A DNA stretch of 64,000 nucleotides. Origin: Dictyostelium discoideum (taxonomy: Eukaryota). The DNA lies in the NCBI GenBank assembly GCA_000004695.1, contig CM000155.2, positions 1,376,001 through 1,440,000 of the forward strand, given 5' to 3'. Numbering within the stretch: the first letter of the stretch is position 1; each line of letters opens with the position of its first letter. The notes under the pieces are model-generated. The model was not told where the DNA came from. It did no database searches and saw only the letters and a list, made by a program, of their open reading frames with translations. The position numbers were made by a program, and so were the translations under genes. Below are positions 1-13,049 of the stretch, piece after piece.

Positions 1-1
1 A

Positions 2-2288
2 TCCCAACATGTATCTATTATCGCAGGAGATTTCAACTGTATCCACAACGACAATTCACTATTAGACGATATTATCCAATCCTACACATACCAACACCAT
101 CTAATTGATCAAGGTGAATTTAAAAACACTCCAACTCATACACATGGCAACAGATTAGATAGAATATATACTCAATACAATAGAATAGACCCTGAAAATA
201 TATATACACAAGTCCACCAAATTCCATCTTCATTATCAGATCATAATCCAATATCAACAACAATTTCTTCACCTTTTCAAATAAATAAACATAAGAAAAG
301 ATGGATATTATCACCTGGTACTGCAAATGACCATGAAGCAATCAATATTATCAATCATTTAATAACTAATCACAATAACACATCAATCAATCAATTTACA
401 AACTGGTCAAAAGTAAAATCAAAAATTATTAAAACTCTAAAAAACTATCAATATAACAAAGACAAACAAACTCAACGTGCAAAACAAATACTATTAGAAA
501 AAGCAGCAAAATTCAAACATCTTGAAGAACAATGCATCGCTGAATACAATATTATATGTAACAAAAACAAATTACATCAAAACCACACAAACATATTAAA
601 AAAACATATAAATTTAGAAATACCTAGCAAGTATCTATCAGCAATACTAAACAAAAGATCAAAAGATGCAAAAATTGAATCAATCCAATATGGTAACATC
701 ATTACATCCGACCCCGACCAAATTGAAAATGCGTTTGTTGAATTCTACACAAATCTATATAGCTTACAAATATGTTGTCCAATTACTCACCAGCTCATGC
801 TAAACACATGGCCCATCATAAAAAATGAATATTGGAATGGTTTAGACTCACCATTTATACAAGATGAAGTTGAAGCTGCAATTAAAACCTGTAACCCCAA
901 CAAATCACCCGGTCCAGATGGCGTTACAAATGCATTCTACATTAATCATCTAAACCAAGTTAAACCAATTCTCACTACATTATTCAACGATATACTAGAA
1001 AATCCTCACCACATCACAACAGAATTCACAGAAGGTCTTATACACACAATATACAAGAAAGGCAACCCCTTACTCATATCAAATCGTCGTCCCATTACAC
1101 TTCTAAACACTGATTACAAGATCCTCTCCAAAGTAATCAATGCACGTCTTCTGAGAATACTTCCTTTCATCATCAACAACAACCAAACTGGTTTCGTACC
1201 CCACAGATTCATCATAGACAACATCATCAACATCAATGAATTAATCAACTACCTCAAATCTAAAAACCTCCCTGGTATCATCACACTATTTGACTTCTTT
1301 AAAGCATTTGACTCTATCTCTCACGATAGTATTAAAAGAACATTAATTCATATTGGTATACCAATAAAATTAATAAATTTAATCCACAAGCTATTATCTG
1401 ACTCACAAGCAAAAATTTCAATTAATGGTAAAACGACCAGAAAATTCGATATTAAAAGAGGTGTAAAACAAGGTGACCCAATCTCAGCCACTTTATTTGT
1501 AATTGTAATTGAAATATTAGCAAGAACAATAAATGCAGACAATTCAATAATTGGATTACCAATTTCACCCAATCCACAAATTAAAATCAAATTTACCCAA
1601 TTTGCAGACGACTCTACAACATACAACATCAACTACGAACAACAACAACAATCAATCAAACATTTCGATAATTTCTGCGCTTCAACATCATCATCTTTAA
1701 ATTTTGACAAAAGTGCAATAATAGAAATCAACCCCCACAAAATCACTGATAAACACATAATAAACAACATTCCACAATCAAAAAGAATTCCAATAACCAA
1801 AAAAGATCAATCAGAAAGAGTTCTTGGCTATTTCTTTAATCATAATGGTTTACATAGGAAATTACCAGAAACAATGAAAACACTGATTAAATCATTAGTG
1901 CTATGGAAAACTAGTGGCACAACATTAAAAACAAAAACAACCATCATAAACACCTACTCACTATCACCAATAACATATTTATCATACCTTGAAGAATTTA
2001 CAAAAGATGAAGAAATTCAAATTAATAAATTAATCTCATGGTTTATGAATTCTCCCGCAAATTCTGAATCACCAACTCTCGATACCAATTCCATTGAAAA
2101 CAACACATCAACCATCCATTCACGTGCAAAAATACCTTTGATGTGTTATGATAGATCATTAAAACCATTAAAAGAAGGAGGTTGGGGTATGTGGAATATC
2201 CAATTACGACAAGTTGCTCAAAAGATTTGGATATACAACAGATTTTTACAAATGCATAAATCTGCAAACAATTCAATATACATGATAA
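2..2288 (+). mobile_element. 5'-truncated ORF2 (AP-endonuclease C-terminus + reverse transcriptase) of a non-LTR LINE-like (TRE-type) retrotransposon; continues into the assembly gap
   Basis: Single open frame from window start to the N-run (same frame as track ORF 797..2425). Motifs read directly: IIAGDFNC and SDHNPI (APE-type endonuclease C-terminal motifs); then RT motifs PGPDG, QTGFVPHRFI, FDFFKAFDSISHD, RGVKQGDPISATLF, FADDSTTY (YxDD box). Assignment to the dictyostelid tRNA-gene-targeted TRE class is inferred from host context only. Confidence 0.8.
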
Positions 2289-2388
2289 NNNNNNNNNNNN
2301 NNNNNNNNNNNNNNNNNNNNNNNNNNNNNNNNNNNNNNNNNNNNNNNNNNNNNNNNNNNNNNNNNNNNNNNNNNNNNNNNNNNNNNNN
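2289..2388. other. Assembly gap (100 N)
   Basis: Run of exactly 100 n characters. Confidence 0.99.
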
Positions 2389-2431
2389 TAATTTTTTTTT
2401 TTTTTCATTTTTTTTTTCTAATTAATTTTTA

Positions 2432-2830
2432 TTAATTTATTTTTATTAACTCCCTGAGTTGTTCAATTGCTTGATTTACCATATCACTGTAAACACTGCA
2501 CACAATTGAATTTTTTCTAGCTTTGTTACCTCTGGTGCATTTGATGTTTTTGCATTTTCCTTTGTATACAAAAAAGTCCAAATATAATTCGTTTTCTATT
2601 ACAGTTTTTACACAATGTTGGTGAAATTGTTTTGATTTTAATTCTAATGCTTCTAACATCATATTTGGATTTTTAACGATTAAAGCATCACCACTATTTA
2701 CATATAGTACTTTGGCTGCTTTTTCGAGGAATTTAGTCAAATTTTCCTCTGAATCTAACTATTCTTCATTGCCATATTCAATGGCTAAATTTCTTAAGAG
2801 TTTTATCGAATCTATTAATTCTTCGATCAT
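2432..2830 (-). CDS. Small hypothetical ORF, unidentified; N-terminal 23 codons (MIEELIDSIKLLRNLAIEYGNEE) lie in a different frame from the 102-aa track ORF, so a frameshift or sequencing error next to the gap is likely
   Basis: Track ORF 2432..2740 (102 aa, contains FFVYKGKCKNIKCTRGNKARK). Upstream minus-strand ATG at 2830 opens a second frame that stops at TAG and abuts the first ORF. Moderate GC and no homopolymers suggest coding, but I could not match a family. Confidence 0.25.
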
Positions 2831-3066
2831 TCTTTTTTTTTGAAATTTTTTTTTATTTTGTTTTTTCAATTTTTTTTTTTTATTTTGTTTTTTCAATTTT
2901 TTTTAAGTTTTATTTTTTTTTATTTTTTTTTATTTTTTTTAACAAATGTAATTTTTTTTTATTTTTTTCAATTTTTTTTTTTTTTTAATTTTTAATTTTT
3001 TTTTTTTTTTTTAATTTTTTGTGTTGATTTGTGTTTTTTTTGTTTTTTTGATTTGGCCACTTGTTT

Positions 3067-5360
3067 TTATTTTCTAATTTCCCCATACCCCCTTCTATTA
3101 ATTGCAACCAAATCAAGTTCTAATTTTTGTGTCCTTGTTAACTTTGTTTTTGCAACTTTTTTTGAAGGTATCACATTAACGATTTTTCCTATTGATGGTG
3201 ATTTGGAAGGTGATTTAAATGGTGATTTAAAAGGTGAATTGGAAGGTGATTTAAATGGTGAATTGGAAGGTGAAATGGATGGTGATTTGGAAGGTGATTT
3301 AAATGGTGATTTGGAAGGTGATTTAAATGGTGATTTAAATGGTGAATTGGAAGGTGAAATGGATGGTGATTTGAGAGGTGATTTGGATGGTTTAGAATGT
3401 GATTTTAAAGGAGGTTTATTAACAATTGGTATCTTATGAGGACGGCCTCTGAGACGTTTAACAGTTGTTACTATACCACTACCAGATTGTGGTATAGTAT
3501 ACGATGGTATTATTTGCACTTGAGGTATTGGTGGTACTATTTCTTTTAAATTCATATCCTTTCTCAAACAATTCATTAAATTTGGCGCTGTTGGATTATT
3601 ATTTAAAAATGGGAGTATTTCTTCTTGTTCCATTTCATTATTGAGTTTGTGTTGAAATGGATTATCGTTAATGATAGGTGGAATATTTGATGGATTGTTA
3701 AGAGCATCTTCCAAAACCCTAAATGGATCATTTTGTGTTACCAATTGATGCAAGTTGAAATTGGATAAATCCTTACCAAGATTTTTAATAAACTGAACCA
3801 GAAATTCAATAACTTTCCCATCATTATTTAAATAAAGACCAGAAGTAAAAGAATCAATATCTTTTTGTATGTTTGGCGATGTTCTAAAAATATCAACTGT
3901 TGATTGTTTATAAAGAACCAACTTGTTACCTCCTACAAAACCAGAGTATAAACCTTTTTTTTGAAGGCTATTGATTCCATCTTCCAAAAATTCAAGTTTA
4001 TAAAGTTGTTTAGTGTCTTCCTGTATTACCTTATGAATTTTACACAAAATCAATATTTTCTATTAGAATTAAATATAAAATTTGTTAATTATTACTGTTT
4101 CATATATTATTAATCTTTATGTTTTAATTACTTACATTATTTTTTTTAATTTCTAGAAAGAGTACAGTATCACCAACTTTCAATCCCTTTGGTGGTTTTG
4201 AATTCCATTGATTTTGGTAACTTGTGAGATTTTCAAGAATAATAGCTGTTCTTTCTTCTTTTGAAACATCTGAAACACCAATTGATTGAGAGTCTTGTTC
4301 TGATTGAACATTAATAAACAAAGGAACAATACCAACAGCTTGAGATGGTTTCATTTTAATTGTTCTTGTTTTTGTATTATTGTAATCATACAAAGCTTGT
4401 TTTAATAGTTCAGAAAGAGACCTAGAAGTACCATCAAGAAAACTAAAATTTATTTATAAATGATTAATTAATAAACATATCGATAATTTATATTGTTCAC
4501 AATATCATACTCTTGTTGTTTTAATTTTGAGATCCTCTCCTTGATAGTTCGATTCAATCTTTCTACCATACCTTGAGTTGTTGGTGTACGAGGAGCTCCA
4601 TGTGCTGACTTGGAGCCTGGAAAAAGTTTTAGGAATTCTTTTTGGACTTTGTTTTTAAATTCACGTCCATTATCGCAGTGCCATACTTTCACAGGTTTGC
4701 CAAAGTACGTGAGAGCCAAAAAATTGTATATGGGAACTGTTCTCTTTGTTGTCAAACATCTAAAAAATAAATGATAATTAAAATAAAAAAAGAAAACTAA
4801 TAAATTAATAAATAAAAAATAAATACCTTCCAGTAGCAAATTTTGTAAAAGAATCTATGCATAGAATAATGTAAACAACATCGGTGTCGTACGGTTGTAC
4901 AGAGTCATATTGGATAAGATCATCTAGTTTAGTTAGTATCTTTTCATTATCATCATCGTATGTAACTTTTTCTTTATGTTCACCTTTAATTGATGTTAAA
5001 TCATAAACCAATCTTGAGTATTCCTCGGTATCTACAATTGGAGCAAAATCCTTTGTTATACCTATTAATTTATTTAAATTATTAAAAGAGTTTTAATATA
5101 AAAGTTACAAAACATCATATAAAAATGATTGATACCAAACCTTTTATTCTATTTCGTTGGCAAATGTCACACGTATCTACTGCATCAGATACAAAAGAAT
5201 ACAATCCCATATTATAATATTTAGTCTTGTAGTTCCCATAGGTTGCATCTCTTCCTATATGACCTTTATGCATTTCTTCCCAGAGTGATACCATTCTATA
5301 ATCATTAATTACTTCTAAACACACTTCTTTTGATATATTTCTATCTCCGCCACAATTCAT
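3067..5360 (-). mobile_element. Degenerate Ty3/gypsy (chromovirus; skipper/DGLT-like) integrase fragment: HHCC zinc finger, DDE core, C-terminal GPY/SH3-like region, possible chromodomain-like segment, then a novel AT-hook + (SPxK)n tail; frame-disrupted
   Basis: Minus-strand ORF pieces in reading order. 5360..5115: H-x3-H...C-x2-C (HKGHIGRD...CDICQRNR). 5011..4805: IDSFTKFATG. 4839..4468: VWHCDNGREFKNK...HGAPRTPTTQGMVERLNRTIKE, the classic retroviral-type integrase core. 4393..4124: ALYDYNNTKTRTI...KGLKVGDTVLF. 4053..3067: KIHKVIQEDTKQLYKLEFLEDG, then KRLRGRPHK and SPxK repeats. The frames of successive pieces differ. The junction at 4468/4393 cannot be rescued by any GT-AG splice in any phase, so it is a true frameshift. 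No RT or RNase H lies upstream (5360-5800 is poly-A), so the element is truncated. Confidence 0.75.
3195..3425 (-). repeat. About 19 tandem 12-bp units (ggtgatttggaa/ggtgatttaaat/ggtgaattggaa on plus strand) encoding an (S-P-x-K)n repeat (KSPSKSPFKSPSNSPF...) at the C-terminus of the integrase-like ORF
   Basis: Periodicity visible directly in the sequence; the minus-strand translation gives SPSK/SPFK/SPSN/SPSI units. The AT-hook-like RGRP lies just upstream (plus 3441-3463, ggacggcctctgagacg). Confidence 0.9.
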
Positions 5361-5579
5361 GACTTTTTTTTCAATTCTAAATAATTTTTCTTTTCTGTTT
5401 CTGTTTTTTATTGGTCAGAATTTAAAAAATGATTGTGTTATTGTAAGGAAAAATATTTACTCATCATGTAAAAATTTATAATTTTTATGTTTAGTATTTT
5501 CAAAATTATTATCTTCAATAAATTTTAAATAATTTATAATTTCATTTATTTTATCTTGTTTCATTTTGGGAAAATGAAA

Positions 5580-5614
<35 letters not shown>

Positions 5615-5809
5615 TGTTGGGGAAAAAAAAAAAAAGTTTTGGCGCAAAAAAAAAAAAAAAAATTAAATTAAAAAAAAAAAAAATTAAATTAAAAAAAAAA
5701 AAAAATAAAAAAACTTATATAGAACTAATAATCAAATAAAAGATAATAATTTAATAAACTTTATTTGTTTTTTGAAAAAAAAAAAATTTAGGGTCAGTGA
5801 TTTTTTTTT

Positions 5810-5875
5810 TTCACTACGCTACTGTAGTGAAATTAAATAATAAAATTCACTACGCTACTGTAGTGAAATTTTATT
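5810..5875. repeat. Two direct copies of a 26-bp element (attcactacgctactgtagtgaaatt), each containing an inverted repeat tcactac-gctac-tgtagtga (hairpin potential)
   Basis: Exact duplicate 32 bp apart (5823-5848 and 5855-5880 approx). It sits between the poly-A tract that follows the integrase fragment and the first codon of the truncated paralogue A. Confidence 0.9.
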
Positions 5876-6979
5876 GAAAATTCCCTACAACAATAATCAT
5901 ATTCAAAATTTAGATAAACAAATTGATATCAATAATAAGTTATTAAATGAATCAAATAATTTATTTAAACCATTAGAAGATAAACACACTGAAAATGTAA
6001 ATACAATCACAAAAGTATTTAAAGAACTCTCCAAATTATTACCAATCATTGAAATTGATAAAATCAAACAATTAGTAACACTCTATGATGAAAATAAAGA
6101 TATCAATACAAACATTTCAACCATTATACATGATAATTTAAATAATATTAATTTAATTACAAATAAATATAAAAATACAATAAATCAAATAAATATTGAT
6201 CAAATCATTAATAACAATAAAAATAATTATCAACATATTGAAATATTAAAACATTGTCATCAATCACAATTATTAATAAAAGATAATCAAAATGAAAATA
6301 AAATCAAAGAATTAATAAATCAATATAAAAATGTAAATATTGTAAATAATAGTAAACAAGTTAAAGAATCAATTAAAGAAATATTTGAAATTAGCGATTC
6401 TCTCTCTATTGCAAATGTAAAAGACCCAAAAAGAGTTACTGGTAAATATTTTAAAAAAATATAAATATAATAATAATTGTGGTATTTGTTTTATTTTAAT
6501 TATTAATATTAAATTATTTATTTAAAGTTACAGGAAAAGGATATTTTATTTATAAAAATGATTCTATCATTCCAAATGGTACTACTCATGTAGCGATTGC
6601 ACCAAGTGTTAGAACAATTAAAATAGGTTCAATTCCAACATCGATTCAATATTTGGTATTACTTGATGGATTTAATGTTCAACTAAAAGAAGGTATGCTA
6701 CCGCAATCAATTATATATCTATATGTTGGTGCAATTAAAAAACCATTGTTAAAAGGTTCAATACCAAATAGTGTTACTGGTTTGTTTTTATTAGATGGAT
6801 TTAATCAAGAAATAACTGAAATACCACAATCATCTTGTTTATACCTTTTTGATACTCCTTTGACAAATTTCCCATTTCAAAATCTAATTTACAGAAGCCC
6901 AAAATATAAACAACAACTCACTCACTCAAAGGTTGGTAATTGGGATGGTCGTAATTATGATCCTATAATTGAACTTTAA
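5874..6979 (+). pseudogene. Paralogue A of a B-box/coiled-coil/FNIP-repeat gene family, 5'-truncated: no B-box and no ATG; exons 5874-6441 and 6528-6979
   Basis: Homology to copy C read directly (..IEILKHCHQSQLLIKDNQNE..KDPKRVTG vs ..IELLKHSYQTQILLNEQDDD..KDPKRVKG). Intron 6442-6527 (GTAAAT...TTTAAAG), phase 1, at the same position as the copy-C intron. Exon 2 encodes VLLDGFNVQL...GSIPNSVTGLFLLDGFNQEI (FNIP-like repeats). The open frame starts at TTG immediately after the 26-bp repeat, and there is no Met codon in 196 codons. Confidence 0.6.
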
Positions 6980-7270
6980 AATATATTTATGTTTGGTAAT
7001 AACAAATGGAAATCCATCTATAAATTTCTCTTTTTTTTATTTCATTATTTTTTTAAAATTGTTTTAAAACGATAAATGAAGAAAAAAATTTATTTTAAAT
7101 TTCCACATTTAAGTTTACCACTTTTTTTATTTTGAACATAAAATTTATTTTCCAAAGAGTTAAATAAATCACATTATTATAAAATTACACATTTTTGTTT
7201 TATTTTTTTCCTTTTTGAGATAAAAATTGTTTTTTTTATATCTAAATATTATCATTAAAAATGAAACAAC

Positions 7271-7325
<55 letters not shown>

Positions 7326-7640
7326 AAGAATACCAAAAAAAGAACTCTAACCAAAATAATAAAAATCATTAAAAAAAAGTGATTTTTATTTTTTACATTC
7401 TATTTTAATTACCTTTTATATGTAGAATGTATCTACCAAATCCAGAAAAATAATTTCCATATGAGCAAAGAAATTGTATTAAATAAAATTTATTTTTATT
7501 AACTATTTAGGCGATTTAAATTTTAAATGTATTTTTTTTTATATAAAATGTAAAAAAACTCGATTTTAAATTTATAGAATAGTATTTTATAATTAAAAAA
7601 ACAATAACACAAATTAAAGAAGATTCCAAAAACTATGATA

Positions 7641-8660
7641 TGAAATGTGAATTTCATGAAGAAAATAAATATAAATTGATATGCCCAACATGTAAAGTTG
7701 CAATGTGTAAAGTTTGCATAATCAGTAAAGGTCATCGTGGTCATGAAACTGAGTTGATTACAAAAGATAGTATTGAACCAATAACTAAAGAATTTAAAGA
7801 TATTAATTTCAAATCAATACAAGAATGTTCAAATAATATTAAATAAAATTTAGAAATATCAAATAAAAAGTTTTATAAAATTGAAAAAGAATATTCAAAA
7901 AATGAAAACTTTGGAACCAAATGAATTCAAGAAAATAAACAAATTATTACAAAAAACAGAAAATGATAAAATTAAAGAACTTTCAACTCATTTTAATACA
8001 AATAAAGAAATCAATACAACATTTCAACTTTGGCAAATAAAAATTTAAAAAATATTGATCAAATTCAAAAGAAATTAAAAGAATTAAGAGACTTTAATGT
8101 GGAATCATTAAATGATAATGATAACAATAGTAATGATAAGGATAAGATTTTAGATTTTTTAAAACATTATCATCAAACCAAAATTGTTTTAAAAGAAATT
8201 TCTTATGAAAGTGAAAGTGAAATTAATGAATTATTAAGTGAATATGAATATATTACCAAACGGTACTCCATATTTAGAATTAGGACCAAGCATAAAGAAT
8301 TTGAAAGCTGGTTCTATTCCTACAACTGTAGTCTATATTATTTTACTAAATGGATTTAATTTCCAACTTTTAAATGGTATTTTACCAAGTTCACTTCAAG
8401 TATTATATGTTGGAGCTATCGAAAAACCATTATTGAATGGTTCAATACCATCAAATGTTTCCACACTCGTTTTATTGGATGGATTCAATCAAAAAATATC
8501 TGAAATACTACCAAGGATTAGTGTTGTATATGTTGGTGATATTCATTCAGAAGAAATTCCACTAAAAAGTACTATCCAAATTAAAAAATCCCCTTCTTGT
8601 AAACAACAATTCAACAATAGCAATTATGTATACGAATGGGAAGGATGTAAGGAAAAATAG
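7641..8660 (+). pseudogene. Paralogue B of the B-box/coiled-coil/FNIP family: intact B-box (MKCEFHEENKYKLICPTCKVAMCKVCIISKGHRGHE), then at least four frame changes; intron-less at the position where copies A and C carry an intron
   Basis: Track ORFs 7640..7846 (B-box), 8030..8359 (coiled coil, LKHYHQTKIVLKEISYESESEINELLSEYEYI) and 8238..8660 (LPNGTPYLELGPSIK..LNGFNFQL..LLDGFNQKI) lie in different frames. Between 7847 and 8040 there are two more short frame-shifted pieces homologous to the copy-C coiled coil. Confidence 0.55.
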
Positions 8661-9732
8661 TTTAATTAGAGGAAATTAAAAAAACAATAAATAATATTAG
8701 TTATTAGAAAGATTTTTAAAAGAGATTATTATAATTTTTTTTTTTTTTCTAAAAATCATTATATAATTTGTTGTTGCTGTTTCTCTTTTTGTTGCTTTCT
8801 AATTCTGCTAATTTCTTTTCTATTTCTTGTTCTTTTCTCAACTTGATCCATGTTTTCTAATTTTTCACCTTTTTCAGCTTTTTCTTTTTGTTAAATTTAA
8901 GTTTTCTTTGTTTTTCTTGTTGTTTTTCACGAGTTCTTTAATTCTTGTTTTTCTTTTGCTTCGTTATCTCTTCTTTTTCCTCTTTCTTTCTTTGTTTTTC
9001 TTTTTGTTGTTTGTTGTTGTTTTTAAAATTTTATTTCTTTTCAATCTTTTACTCATATTCTAATTGTAATTGTTTATCTTTTTCAAGTTTTTCTTTTATT
9101 TCTCTTTCTTTTTCAATTGAGCTTATTGTTATTGGTTTCTATTTTTTTCTTCTTTTTTTCTTCTATTTCTATTTCTCTTTCCAATTCCATTTGAGTCAAT
9201 TTTTCTTGTTTTTCTCTTTGATATTTTTTTTTGGTCTTTTTGAATGCATTCTAGGTCACTTTGTTCTTGTTTCTTTTTCCAATGGTTTTTTATTTTCAAA
9301 TTGTTTCTCTGATTGAAAGATTGATTTCACGTCTACTGAGAATGCAGATTGTTTCTCTTTCTAATTGAAGACCAGATTGATATTATGTTGTAATATTACC
9401 CATTGTTGTTGATGAATTGACATCAGAATCAGCAGAATTGAAACAGCTAAACAATATAAATTATTCCATCTTGAGGGTAGACGTAATATTAGAGTTAAAA
9501 GTTGATTTAAATCATTGATAGTGATGGAAAAAAAAAAAAAAATGAAAAAAAAAAAATAAAAAAAAATAAAAAATAAAAAAAAAAAAAATAAACTAGATTA
9601 ATACGAGACAGATCAATTAAATATTTTTTAAAAAAAATAATAATAATAATAAAATAAAATTATTTATTTGAAAAAAAATAAAAATAAAAATTAATTAAAT
9701 TATAATTTTTTGATTTTAATTATTTTTGGAAG

Positions 9733-9764
<32 letters not shown>

Positions 9765-9821
9765 GAATATTTTTTTTTTTTTTTTTTTTTTTTGATTTTA
9801 TTTTTATATTTATATTTAAAA

Positions 9822-11600
9822 ATGGATGACTATAGTATTTTATTTAAAATTATTAAAACTGAAGAGATTAAAAATAATAATGAAATAGATATAATTTTTT
9901 TTAAAGTTTGGAGAAATAAATTTATTTTAAATGAAATTAATCTTCATCAAAGATTATATAATTTAAATGAAAAAAAGAAATTTAAAATTTGTAAAGATTT
10001 TCATGAATTTAAATATAAAGAATATGTAAAAGATTTAACTATTTCAAGTAATGATGAAAATACATTTACAAATCAATTTAAAGTACCAAAAGGTATTTTC
10101 AAATTAACATTTTCAAATTTAAATAGAGAATTTAATATTAGAAATGTAATTCCATCAACGGTAACTCATTTAAAATTTGGTGATGAATTTAATAAACTTT
10201 TGTCACCTGGTGATATTACAAAGGGTGTTAAACATTTAGAATTTGGTAAAAAATTCAATCAACCATTTACAAATGCAGGTGTAATTCCATCAACTGTTGA
10301 AACTATAAAATTTGGAAATTTTAATAAAATTTTAAAAAAGGGTGATATACCAATGGGTGTTAGATCGGTAGAGTTTGGTTCACATTTTGATAAACCATTA
10401 AAGAATTTACCATTATCAATTGAATCATTAAAATTTGGTAGTAGATTTGGAAGAGCATTCGATGCATCACAATTACCAAGTTTGATAACTAAAATCTATG
10501 GATTTGCATCAACAGAACCATTGAAAAGCTACCAAATTCCAAGAGTTACAAGTTTACATTTCGATTCATATTATCGTCATAAATTTGAAGCTGATACATT
10601 ACCAAATGGATTATTACACTTGGATTTAAAAGATTATTCAGAAGTATATGTAATTGAAAAAGATGTTTTACCAAAAACATTGGAAAAGTTGGAACTTCCT
10701 TATAGATATAATCATAGAATTGAAATTGGTGTTTTACCTCAAACCTCTTTGAAAACTTTATACTGTTATTCAGATTACCAATATCCTTTAGAAGATAATG
10801 TTTTACCAAAATCATTAACAGAATTAACATTTGGTATTAAATCAGATATAATATTCACCAATTGTAAATTACCATCAAATATTAAAAATTTAGAATTAAA
10901 TTATTTTAATGATCCATTAAAAGATATTTTACCAAGTAAATTAGAATCATTGAAAATTAAAGGACTAAATCAGAATATTGAATTGGGTAATTTACCAAAA
11001 TCATTAAAGGAAATAACATTCTCACATAATTTTAATAACATTTTAGAAGTGAATGTTTTACCTTTAAATTTGGTTAAATTGGACTTAGGTGGTTATAATC
11101 AACCTCTACGTAAAGGTGTCATTCCAAATAGTGTTTTAATTTTAAAATTAAATACATTTGATAAAATTTTAAAAGTTGGTGATTTACCAAACTCAATAAT
11201 TTCATTGGAAATGGTGTGTTATAATCAACCTTTAATATCAAGAGTTTTACCAAATGCTTTAAAGAAATTAAAATTTGGAGATTTCAATTCAAGATTTGAA
11301 ATTGATTCTTTACCAAATACATTAACTCATTTGGAATTTAAAAGATTTAAACAAATTATTCCATCTGGTTATTTACCAAATAGTATTGAATATTTAAAAT
11401 TAGGTGATTATTTTAATCAACCTTTAAAAGGTGTAATACCATCATCAGTTACAAGTTTAAATATTGATAATTATTATTTCGATCAAGAATTATACCATTT
11501 ACCAAAATCTTTAAAAATTTTATACTTTGATAAATTAAAAAAGGATAAATTATTATCAACTTTACCAATTGACCATTCAATAATAATATTTAATGAATAG
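9822..11600 (+). CDS. FNIP-repeat protein (about 592 aa), single exon
   Basis: ATG at 9822 in-frame with track ORF 9726..11600; upstream codons are a poly-T 5' leader. Dozens of about 22-aa repeats with L/IP-x-S/T-L/V-x-x-L-x-F/L-G-x-x-FN-Q/K-x-L/I (e.g. FGDEFNKLLSPGDITKGVKHLEFGKKFNQPFTNAGVIPSTVETIKFGNFNKIL), the dictyostelid FNIP repeat. Confidence 0.85.
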   Translation: MDDYSILFKIIKTEEIKNNNEIDIIFFKVWRNKFILNEINLHQRLYNLNEKKKFKICKDFHEFKYKEYVKDLTISSNDENTFTNQFKVPKGIFKLTFSNLNREFNIRNVIPSTVTHLKFGDEFNKLLSPGDITKGVKHLEFGKKFNQPFTNAGVIPSTVETIKFGNFNKILKKGDIPMGVRSVEFGSHFDKPLKNLPLSIESLKFGSRFGRAFDASQLPSLITKIYGFASTEPLKSYQIPRVTSLHFDSYYRHKFEADTLPNGLLHLDLKDYSEVYVIEKDVLPKTLEKLELPYRYNHRIEIGVLPQTSLKTLYCYSDYQYPLEDNVLPKSLTELTFGIKSDIIFTNCKLPSNIKNLELNYFNDPLKDILPSKLESLKIKGLNQNIELGNLPKSLKEITFSHNFNNILEVNVLPLNLVKLDLGGYNQPLRKGVIPNSVLILKLNTFDKILKVGDLPNSIISLEMVCYNQPLISRVLPNALKKLKFGDFNSRFEIDSLPNTLTHLEFKRFKQIIPSGYLPNSIEYLKLGDYFNQPLKGVIPSSVTSLNIDNYYFDQELYHLPKSLKILYFDKLKKDKLLSTLPIDHSIIIFNE

Positions 11601-11933: not shown

Positions 11934-12066
11934 ATGGACGATATTCATAATAATAATGAAAACATTCAAAATGATTATGACAATATTGTAATATTATCAG
12001 AACAAGAATCAATTAAAAATCAAATTGACATTGATTTTAGTATTGAACAATTTAGTGATAATAATA

Positions 12067-12097
<31 letters not shown>

Positions 12098-12100
12098 TAG

Positions 12101-12140
<40 letters not shown>

Positions 12141-13049
12141 GATAATGATAATGATAATGATAATGATAATATAGATAATACCAGTATTATTTGTGAAGAT
12201 TATGACGATAAAATAAATATTATTAGCGATAATAATATTAATAATAATATTAATAATAATAATAATATTAATAATATTAAATACGATAATAAATGTATTT
12301 TTCATAAAGAACAAGATTATAGATTCATTTGTAGTGATTGTCAAGTACCAGTATGTGATATGTGTATAGTTAGTTCAGAATATCATAGATCTCATGTATT
12401 TGATTTAATTAATCAAGTTAATACAGCTACATTATTTCAAGATTTTAAGAATAAACATTTTCAAAATTTAGATCATTGTTTAGAGAGTATTAAAGAATCA
12501 GTCAACGATTCTAATGAAATCTATAAGAATTTAAATGAAGAACATAATCAAAATGTAAATATTGTAACTAAAGAATTTAAAGAGATTCACTCACTTTTAG
12601 AATCAATTGAAAAGGATATCATTAACAGATTAAATAGTCATCATGATGAAAATAAAGAAACCAATGAAAAAATTACAACAACTGCAAATGATCACATTAA
12701 AAATGTTGATCAATTATTAAGTAAATATAGATACTCAATCAATGATTATAATATTGATGAAATTTTTAATAATAGTAATAATAGCAATAATAATAATTGT
12801 GGTAGTAGTAATCGTCAACATATAGAATTATTAAAACATAGTTATCAAACCCAAATATTATTAAATGAACAAGATGATGATAATACACTCAATAAATTAA
12901 TAAGTGAATATAATAAAATTTCATTAATAAATTCAATTGATCTCGTTAAAAATTCAATTAAAGATACTTTTCAAATTCAACCAAATAGTCTTTATTCTGA
13001 AGATTCAAAAGATCCAAAAAGAGTTAAAGGTAATTAATTAATTTTTATA

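Follow-up and report, generated by a model that had tools for sequence, protein, structure and literature searches.

A probable Tdd-4 DNA transposon of Dictyostelium discoideum with five predicted short introns in its transposase gene

Layout of the locus

The window (the whole 64,000-nucleotide stretch of Dictyostelium discoideum DNA that was analysed, numbered from its first letter) carries on its minus strand, over positions 5892 to 2389, an element whose sole recognisable gene is that of an integrase-like transposase; reverse transcriptase (RT), RNase H, protease and gag were sought inside the element and none was found. The visible part of this copy measures 3,504 bp, and the last ~330 bp, including the 3' terminal inverted repeat (TIR), are missing relative to the sister copy L002 and fall at an assembly gap. 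The main features are as follows.

2389..5892, minus strand: visible part of the probable Tdd-4 copy, 98.4% identical over 3,463 bp to L002 (MITEs removed)
5748..5892, minus strand: 5' TIR, 145 bp, starting TGTTGTAGGG, defined by comparison with other copies
2432..2831, minus strand: 3' internal region of the element, 99-100% identical in L002
2289..2388, no strand: assembly gap of 100 N, hiding the 3' TIR and the target-site duplication (TSD) of the window copy

The 5' end of the element lies at 5892, homology to five independent copies beginning at 5892-5900. The TIR was located via comparison with these other copies; a generic inverted-repeat search of positions 1-9000 missed it, yielding nothing but poly-A/T low-complexity pairs. 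Two direct copies of TTCACTACAGTAGCGTAGTGAA are found inside the 5' TIR, at 5810-5831 and 5846-5867. All copies open with TGTTGTAGGG, and TGTTG is present at every end examined (7/7). The terminal repeats are inverted and not direct; the first 145 bp of L002 match the reverse complement of its last 145 bp at 142 positions, beyond which the end-to-end similarity falls to about 80% and continues at that level to ~320 bp. L002 measures 3,791 bp once its three MITE inserts are subtracted. Perfect 5-bp TSDs surround two copies, TCATC at L002 and TATAT at L003. L003 also holds an internally deleted derivative, and nested insertions occur among the copies. On its 3' side, the window copy is predicted to continue for ~330 bp ending ...CCCTACAACA, followed by ATTAT (minus strand) as its TSD. 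With its 3' TIR and TSD concealed by the gap at 2289-2388, this copy is a candidate for a complete and mobile element. The copy interrupts a host gene, whose missing 5' half, the part with the B-box, is predicted to come next after the ATTAT. As for its surroundings, the nearest RT open reading frame (ORF) is on the opposite strand, past the assembly gap, and LTR retroelements also occur near it in the window and in related loci.

Exon and intron structure of the transposase gene

Removal of five minus-strand introns (5460..5401, 5140..5062, 4826..4760, 4510..4443 and 4135..4060) leaves an open frame of 715 aa with the following parts.

5461..5564, minus strand: exon 1, MKQDKINEIINYL...KFLHD plus two bases of E35; N-terminus conserved in Tdd-5 and the P0010 family
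5401..5460, minus strand: predicted intron 1, 60 nt, GTAAAT...ACAG, phase 2; junction HDE^NRKEK equals that of annotated model P0016
5141..5400, minus strand: exon 2 with the H2C2 zinc-binding motif (H79...C115, 5270..5160); Pfam Integrase_H2C2
5062..5140, minus strand: predicted intron 2, 79 nt, GTTTGG...ATAG, phase 1 (RNRIK^G); junction within the published TDD4
4827..5061, minus strand: exon 3 with the first catalytic Asp, D142 (VYDLTS, 5008..4991); Ginger2 alignment
4760..4826, minus strand: predicted intron 3, 67 nt, GTATTT...TTAG, phase 2 (FATG^RC), 93% A+T; conserved across families
4511..4759, minus strand: exon 4 with catalytic D229 (CDNG, 4674..4672) and E266 (MVERLN, 4563..4561); integrase alignments
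4443..4510, minus strand: predicted intron 4, 68 nt, GTATGA...TTAG, phase 2 (KLKQQ^D); junction within the published TDD4(XP_629668)
4136..4442, minus strand: exon 5; splice map and comparison with P0016
4060..4135, minus strand: predicted intron 5, 76 nt, GTAAGT...ATAG, phase 0 (IKKNN^KIL); present in copy L001
3067..4059, minus strand: exon 6 to the stop codon; comparison with L002 and Tdd-5

An earlier note on this DNA had described AT-rich GT...AG segments interrupting an integrase frame; such segments do exist on the minus strand and are indeed intron-like, although their positions had been misplaced by 6-32 nt. Thus, the segment gtaagtaattaaaac...ttctaatag occupies 4135..4060 (76 nt) rather than 4123-4054 and gtatttatttttt...tttttag occupies 4826..4760 (67 nt) rather than 4858-4792; the third interruption inside the span then given is 5140..5062 (79 nt). 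Each of these three is 85-93% A+T, compared with 69.5% for the exons, and each contains stops when read through; over the whole gene, A+T amounts to 78-93% in the introns and to 62-71% in most exons. The start of the gene is further upstream than had been assumed, at exon 1 (5564..5461) and the intron behind it (5460..5401), and this exon is also used in the annotated models P0016 and P0002. A fourth break, at 4468/4393, had been held to be impossible to splice in any phase and was taken for a true frameshift. It is bridged by the 68-nt phase-2 intron 4 (4510..4443), with the donor aga^GTATGATA at 4510 and the acceptor AATTTTAG^ttt at 4443, giving ...KLKQQ-D-FLDGTSRS..., and no frameshift is found there. 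Position 4393 is the first TTG of the downstream ORF and was probably mistaken for a coding restart, the frame being open from 4442.

Towards the 3' end, the unspliced frame of exon 6 stops at 3067, a position homologous to the end of Tdd-5. A sixth intron of the AT-AA type, sought by eye over 3084..2832 and the SPXX array, gave no reading with a sensible frame; one model of strain AX4 uses a GT-AG intron at about 3084..2832. The 3' internal region may contain an exon 7 (2831..2759), as in the AX4 model DDB_G0292352, and a 102-aa ORF (2740..2432) continues in the same frame after a TAG; gene models are inconsistent in their use of 2432..2831. A Pfam search of the 3' ORF produced no match, and that of the non-repeat part of exon 6 nothing meaningful.

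How often such junctions might arise by chance was gauged with random AT-rich inserts of the same composition, counting those across which a GT..AG pair within +/-12 nt allowed the frame to continue. Depending on the site, 3-61% of shuffles were bridged; the joint probability for all five introns is about 5e-6. The comparative evidence presented below is much stronger than this control.

The predicted transposase

The 715-aa product has, besides an H2C2 zinc finger, an integrase core made up of D142, D229 and E266, together with an AT-hook and 16 repeats of SPXX. The match to Pfam Integrase_H2C2 (E=1.2e-7) passes the curated cut-off, while those to rve and rve_3 are both under it (for rve, 26.6 bits vs 32.6). 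D142 falls in the first catalytic D column of the Ginger2 transposases (Bao et al., Additional file 1); D229 and E266 correspond to HIV-1 integrase D116 and E152, and align likewise with the integrase cores of RSV and HTLV-2. Retroviral integrase cores are the best PDB matches of the product, and the alignment with RSV integrase crosses the junction of intron 4 uninterrupted. Both the AT-hook RLRGRPHK (3456..3433) and the 16 tandem SPXX repeats (3381..3190) are encoded by exon 6 on the minus strand. The basic C-terminus is conserved, its last residues before the stop (...INRRGYGEIRK) being homologous to those of Tdd-5 (...LNRSIQGDLK). The GPY/F motif, searched as GP[YF], has no occurrence in the 715 residues. 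The protein is most probably a transposase; it shares ancestry with the integrases of retroviruses and Gypsy elements and ends in a putative DNA-binding SPXX tail.

Identity of the element

The 256-aa TDD4(XP_629668) sequence given by Bao et al. 2010 (PMC2836005, Additional file 1) recurs unchanged in the product as residues 74-329. This identical stretch crosses the junctions of introns 2, 3 and 4 and takes in the copy-specific K314 (T in most copies). Over its full length, the product departs at a single residue from P0016, annotated at four loci of another D. discoideum strain, and likewise at one from the AX4 models P0021 and P0020. According to Bao et al. 2010 (PMC2836005), TDD-4 measures 3,839 bp, is present in more than 10 copies and has 5-bp TSDs and TGTNR termini, and its transposase has H2C2 and DDE motifs without GPY/F; the anatomy of the window copy and its sister copies agrees with these features. 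The TIR is listed there as 260 bp, as against the near-perfect 145 bp seen in L002. We put at about 95% the probability that 5892..2389 represents Tdd-4, which is a D. discoideum DNA transposon of the cut-and-paste type and belongs to the Ginger2/Tdd superfamily.

Wells is said to have described Tdd-4 in 1999 as a 3.8-kb element bounded by 145-bp TIRs that end in TG...CA, with six introns in its gene, 15 SPXX repeats and HHCC and DDE motifs. Introns 1-5 were reportedly GT-AG; the sixth, of the AT-AA type, had alternative 5' sites around the SPXX region; the ORF is reported to have been assembled by intron removal, together with alternative splicing, implying cDNA data. Tdd-4 and its introns are already known, having been described in 1999 and classed as Ginger2/Tdd in 2010, and the present observation therefore carries little scientific weight: the interruptions are genuine but ordinary.

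The earlier note had started from the premise of a retrotransposon gene and had favoured a decaying copy, which corresponds to a pol fragment of an LTR retrotransposon (Skipper or DGLT-A type) where AT-rich insertions and a frameshift mimic introns. Integrase-type domains are present, LTR retroelements and an RT ORF are found nearby in the window and in related loci, and any single break can be bridged by chance at the shuffle rates given above. However, the spliced frame is fully open over 715 aa, contains no frameshift and is one residue off the multi-locus consensus; the repeats are inverted instead of direct and are accompanied by 5-bp TSDs, no RT, RNase H or gag lies within, and the RT close by is encoded on the opposite strand, past the assembly gap. 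The GPY/F motif is absent, the interruptions are common to all copies and to families only 35-46% identical, and indels between copies respect the exon/intron map. We give a decaying pol fragment practically no chance; TIRs, TSDs and coding content point to the DNA transposon Tdd-4.

Other copies, selection and expression

The Tdd-4 gene occupies at least 10 loci in AX4 and many in other strains, and the flanks differ between copies, which identifies it as dispersed and multi-copy; dictyBase lists 19 Tdd-4 elements (PMC3386910). These elements are transcribed, with a 25-fold increase in an rblA mutant (PMC3386910), and an RNA-seq study found a Tdd-4 ORF to be differentially expressed (PMC12405889). 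Comparison with other genomic copies, which had been proposed as a check, finds the interruptions at matching positions in both L001 and L002 as well as at four annotated loci. L001, roughly 89% identical to the window copy, has its ORF open under the same exon/intron structure. Between these two copies, exon indels measure 75, 51 and 3 nt, all multiples of three, while intron indels measure 1, 2, 5, 1 and 3 nt and are mostly not. With a dN/dS of 0.43 for the same pair, the exons are under purifying selection.

An intact ORF with this dN/dS and conserved introns would also be expected of an integrase gene taken over by the host, as happened with GIN genes in vertebrates, and furnished with introns after domestication, and the database label says only "Integrase catalytic domain-containing protein". 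The copy number given above, including four identical loci in another strain, speaks against such a gene, as do the TIRs of every complete copy, each with its own TSD at an unrelated site, and the existence of internally deleted derivatives and nested insertions. Furthermore, the published sequence of the TDD-4 transposase recurs unchanged in the product, and the window copy itself interrupts a host gene. Domestication is thus very improbable. Its variant in which the domesticated gene later decayed, as well as the notion that AT-rich indels resemble introns by chance, both raised in the earlier note, are contradicted by copy number, TIR/TSD anatomy, indel pattern and the conservation of intron positions. 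The Tdd-4 gene at this locus is not part of a retroelement in decay, nor has it been domesticated.

Conservation and turnover of the introns

Junctions were compared among Tdd-like families by direct reading and then with an exact mapper, leaving out P0004, in which the first exon as annotated stems from a MITE. Positions and phases of introns 3 and 4 are the same in Tdd-4, Tdd-5, the P0009 family and the P0010 family (35-46% identity), so that the supposed frameshift coincides with an intron kept in four families. Intron 1 recurs in L001 and the P0010 family without change of position or phase, and Tdd-5 uses the same acceptor. Intron 2 is restricted to Tdd-4 and Tdd-5, where position and phase agree. 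At about the site of intron 5, the P0009 and P0010 families have an intron in another phase, while Tdd-5 has none; the site is therefore occupied in three families, in three different phases. The P0009 and P0010/P0011 families, encountered only in assemblies other than those of AX4, may not have been described before.

Public models disagree among themselves for some copies, and one might suspect that the locus is Tdd-4 but that the introns are a convenience of gene prediction, the segments being kept in vivo and all copies being pseudogenes. Such an artefact is most unlikely in view of the frame-breaking indels in introns as opposed to in-frame indels in exons, the purifying selection, and intron positions and phases conserved across four families. 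Alignments to intron-free retroviral integrases also cross the junctions without gaps, and the intron-removed ORF and alternative splicing said to have been reported in 1999 imply cDNA data. From this comparison, the five interruptions between 5460 and 4060 are predicted to be genuine spliceosomal introns, of the short, very AT-rich GT-AG kind typical of Dictyostelium. The comparative evidence, the gene models and the Tdd-4 literature suggest that all five junctions are spliced in vivo.

Tentatively, and at slightly less than even odds, the Dictyostelium Tdd clade may display intron turnover inside a DNA-transposon lineage. If true and undescribed, this would amount to a modest but clear-cut example of ancient introns being retained in mobile DNA, alongside intron gain, loss or sliding.

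Transposition and annotation

In the proposed mechanism, transposase made from the spliced mRNA would bind the 145-bp TIRs, excise the element and insert it elsewhere with duplication of a 5-bp target. The window copy may still be able to move in this manner. The element would travel as DNA, and its genomic copy would therefore never go through a spliced RNA intermediate, unlike a retroelement, which is why introns can persist in Tdd-4.

For annotators, the presence of an integrase-like ORF does not by itself imply a retroelement, and in AT-rich genomes with short introns, splice solutions to apparent frameshifts should be tried before a pseudogene is called. Several public models of Tdd-4 copies are visibly wrong: some skip the exon with the first catalytic Asp, some contain peptides that derive from MITEs, and one runs on into a host gene. 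Several models of other copies have different exon combinations.

Comparison with known systems

With published Tdd-4, the window and sister copies share the 256-aa core, the TGTTG terminus, the 145-bp TIR, 5-bp TSDs (seen at sister copies), a length of ~3.8 kb, an H2C2 and DDE transposase, the SPXX tail and the GT-AG introns 1-5. Nothing of substance differs; the window copy has K314 instead of the T of most copies, and 16 SPXX units where 15 were reportedly counted.

Tdd-5 (AF298206; DDB_G0290955) has the same architecture, about 44% protein identity, a homologous C-terminal end and introns 1-4 at matching codon positions and phases. It is a separate element family, without intron 5, and has a Pro/Thr/Ser-rich tail instead of the SPXX array.

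The animal and fungal Ginger2 elements (Bao et al. 2010, PMC2836005) also combine H2C2 with DDE, and share the strongly conserved HGAPRTPTTQG-VER motif, TGTNR termini, TIRs and the lack of a GPY/F motif. They differ in having 4-bp TSDs (5-bp in Tdd-4), only about 30% core identity and mostly shorter TIRs.

Ty3/Gypsy and retroviral integrases belong to the same zinc-finger and DDE fold family, and their catalytic D and E align with those of the window protein. These integrases, however, are domains of an intron-less pol polyprotein in LTR elements replicating through RNA, whereas the window protein is predicted to be a stand-alone transposase of a TIR element, encoded by a gene with introns and devoid of the GPY/F motif.

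Splice Structure of the Gene

The window has a G+C content of 23% and a single run of 100 N; on its minus strand, at 5564-3067, lie six ORF pieces with short, very AT-rich segments in between. All GT...AG intervals joining neighbouring pieces in frame were enumerated, and this exhaustive search provides a short solution at every break; taking the five introns out leaves a 2,148-nt CDS of 715 aa with zero internal stops. The earlier note had rightly spotted a genuine feature, which it described, partly wrongly, as an interrupted and decaying retrotransposon integrase; the interruption sequences it quoted exist in the DNA, with coordinates 6-32 nt out, and the break at 4468/4393, held to be unspliceable in any phase, is closed in frame by intron 4 (donor aga/GTATGA, acceptor TTTTAG/t), which joins ...KLKQQ to D-FLDGTSRS....

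Introns of the window Tdd-4 gene and their state in Tdd-5 and two further Tdd-like families (P0009, P0010)
5460..5401, minus: intron 1, 60 nt, phase 2; Tdd-5, same acceptor; P0009, outside the model; P0010, same position and phase
5140..5062, minus: intron 2, 79 nt, phase 1; Tdd-5, same position and phase; P0009 and P0010, absent
4826..4760, minus: intron 3 (..G^RC), 67 nt, phase 2; phase 2 in Tdd-5, P0009 and P0010
4510..4443, minus: intron 4 (..^D), 68 nt, phase 2; phase 2 in Tdd-5, P0009 and P0010
4135..4060, minus: intron 5, 76 nt, phase 0; Tdd-5, absent; P0009, about the same site, phase 1; P0010, about the same site, phase 2

Evidence for Genuine Introns

Intron positions were compared by exact splice maps among Tdd-4, Tdd-5 (44% identical to Tdd-4), the P0009 family (46%) and the P0010 family (38%). 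Introns 3 and 4 agree in position and phase across the four families, so the alleged true frameshift at 4468/4393 (intron 4) is, on sequence comparison, one of the two best-conserved introns of the clade. The introns are 78-93% A+T vs 69.5% for the exons overall. Against another Tdd-4 copy (L001, roughly 89% identical), exon indels of 75, 51 and 3 nt are each a multiple of three, and those in introns measure 1, 2, 5, 1 and 3 nt; the L001 frame stays open when the window exon map is applied, and dN/dS is 0.43 over 684 codons. As a control for chance, random AT-rich inserts of matching composition were generated by shuffling: depending on the site, 3-61% of them could be bridged in frame, and the joint probability is ~5e-6. 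As for expression, 19 Tdd-4 elements are collectively 25-fold up in an rblA mutant and their ORFs are transcribed (PMC3386910), and a separate RNA-seq study lists one Tdd-4 ORF as differentially expressed (PMC12405889). As judged from composition, indels, selection and splice maps, the interruptions are very probably real introns.

Product of the Gene and Its 3' Region

In the 715-aa product, Pfam scores the integrase H2C2 zinc-binding domain above its cut-off and the integrase cores rve and rve_3 below theirs. Among solved structures, the best matches are the catalytic cores of retroviral integrases (RSV, HIV-1, HTLV-2, PFV; E about 1e-5). The CDNG Asp pairs with D116 of HIV-1 and the MVERLN Glu with its E152, and the alignment with RSV integrase crosses the intron-4 junction without interruption. 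D142, D229 and E266 form the predicted catalytic triad; C-terminal to this DDE core lie an AT-hook (RLRGRPHK) and an array of 16 SPXX units in tandem, and no GPY/F motif was found in the product. As the unspliced frame stops at 3067, a position that corresponds by homology to the C-terminus of Tdd-5, the product is probably the full-length transposase. The SPXX array (3190-3381, minus; 16 units) changes length among copies by in-frame steps, with a 51-nt indel vs L001 and one additional SKSPLKSTS unit in DDB_G0292352 of strain AX4.

A sixth Tdd-4 intron, reportedly AT-AA with alternative 5' sites around the SPXX region, was looked for in the window copy and not found. Further 3', region 2831-2432 (minus) is 99-100% conserved in another copy (L002); Pfam gives no match to it, and different gene models use it differently. 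It holds a 102-aa ORF (2740..2432, minus) within Tdd-4, 3' of the transposase stop and in frame with a short upstream ORF (2831..2759); the single TAG between them also occurs in L002, and an internally deleted copy at L003 keeps part of the ORF region.

A DNA Transposon

Homology of the window to five independent copies at three other loci always starts at 5892, with TGTTGTAGGGAATTTTC. In L002 the opening 145 bp are repeated inverted at the opposite end (142/145 matches), and each of the two copies with both ends is flanked by a perfect 5-bp target-site duplication (TCATC at L002, TATAT at L003). The terminal inverted repeats (TIRs) hold two copies of TTCACTACAGTAGCGTAGTGAA, possible transposase binding sites. 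Minus three foreign inserts, the L002 copy measures 3,791 bp; the window copy is short only by ~330 bp at its 3' end (the 3' TIR), lost in the gap at 2289-2388. Searches for RT, RNase H and gag found none within the Tdd-4 unit. An RVT_1 ORF of non-LTR type (797-2287, plus; E=3e-31) runs into the same 100-N gap; it is a separate element, unlinked to the integrase-like gene. A retroelement reading was thus rejected on the inverted repeats, the duplications and the absence of these genes from the unit, the nearby RVT_1 being on the opposite strand and past the gap: the element is a DNA transposon.

From general knowledge of DDE transposases and Ginger2/Tdd elements, and by inference, Tdd-4 would be transcribed and its five introns (six reported) spliced out; the integrase-like transposase made from this mRNA would bind the TIRs, cut at the TG...CA ends and integrate the DNA through a 5-bp staggered cut. 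Introns would survive because the genomic copy propagates as DNA, never via a spliced RNA template, which dissolves the paradox the earlier note had seen in an intron-bearing retrotransposon gene.

Identity, Gene Models and Related Families

All of the nearest proteins in the database belong to Dictyostelium discoideum. P0016 (715 aa, four loci, another strain) differs from the window model at one residue, K314 vs T, which is also the sole difference, over the shared length, from AX4 DDB_G0283133 and DDB_G0268958. The core of TDD4(XP_629668) printed by Bao, Kapitonov and Jurka (2010, Additional file 1; PMC2836005) recurs unchanged, at 256/256 residues, as residues 74-329 of the window product, a stretch that includes K314 and crosses the junctions of introns 2, 3 and 4; on this match, the window is probably the AX4 locus of XP_629668. 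TDD5(AF298206) from the same file matches P0004, whose cluster includes DDB_G0290955, named Tdd-5 by Strasser et al. 2012 (PMC3386910).

The AX4 Tdd-4 models disagree (P0003, P0032, P0034 and P0035, respectively DDB_G0292352, DDB_G0276645, DDB_G0282083 and DDB_G0287117). Several join RNRIK straight to VWHCDNG and so lose exon 3 together with the first catalytic Asp; one continues across a long 3' intron into MIEELIDS...GNEE, and DDB_G0287117 (1,049 aa) is a chimeric model that fuses Tdd-4 to a host gene lying downstream. P0010 (L004 3001-4945) and P0009 (L005 3001-7123), 35-46% identical to Tdd-4, represent possibly undescribed families, which turned up only in assemblies other than AX4 (D. 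discoideum or D. cf. discoideum); they have introns 3 and 4 as in Tdd-4/Tdd-5 and no intron 2, and close to the site of intron 5 they have an intron of another phase. P0008 (ACTFIZ_012349, 98-kb contig), an annotated Tdd-like protein whose fused C-terminal part looks bacterial (SPOR domain, DsbA-like tail), is probably an assembly or annotation chimera.

Insertion Site and Nested Elements

A host ORF (5893-6464, plus) adjoins the Tdd-4 5' end and aligns with a paralog (11934-13037, plus; 39% identity, E=1e-37). Since the alignment begins only at paralog residue 171, right after its B-box zinc finger, the Tdd-4 copy appears to interrupt the coding sequence of a gene of the B-box/FNIP-repeat family, whose absent N-terminal half is expected on the far side of the assembly gap. 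At L003, a 1,745-bp internally deleted Tdd-4 derivative (9300-11044, minus) with both TIRs and the TATAT duplication has inserted into a Tdd-5 transposase ORF, at its 3' end, and the annotated Tdd-5 protein P0004 terminates inside Tdd-4 TIR sequence (...APSYML-stop). The L002 copy, 99.9-100% identical to the window copy, holds three insertions of one MITE-like element:

L002 5108-5867, 7299-8056, 9108-9867 and L003 about 7070-7826: MITE-like element, 758-760 bp, ends CACAGCAAAG...GCTGTG

The first L002 insertion has an apparent TA duplication, the second a 30-bp deletion taking out the intron-5 acceptor, and the L003 one lies within intron 3 of a Tdd-5 copy; the annotated proteins P0001 and P0004 contain MITE-derived peptides, and the window has no copy. 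The element may be thug-S, since a gene homologous to tdd-4 as well as to thugS has been mentioned (PMC3386910).

Comparison with Known Elements

The family has been known since 1999. The Wells 1999 abstract reportedly puts Tdd-4 at 3.8 kb, with six introns, SPXX repeats and TIRs of 145 bp that have TG...CA ends; size, TIRs and SPXX repeats agree with the element here. The copies likewise agree in termini, target-site duplications, size and domains with TDD-4/Ginger2 of Bao et al., for which 3,839 bp, >10 copies, a 5-bp duplication, TGTNR termini, H2C2 and DDE domains and no GPY/F are given (PMC2836005).
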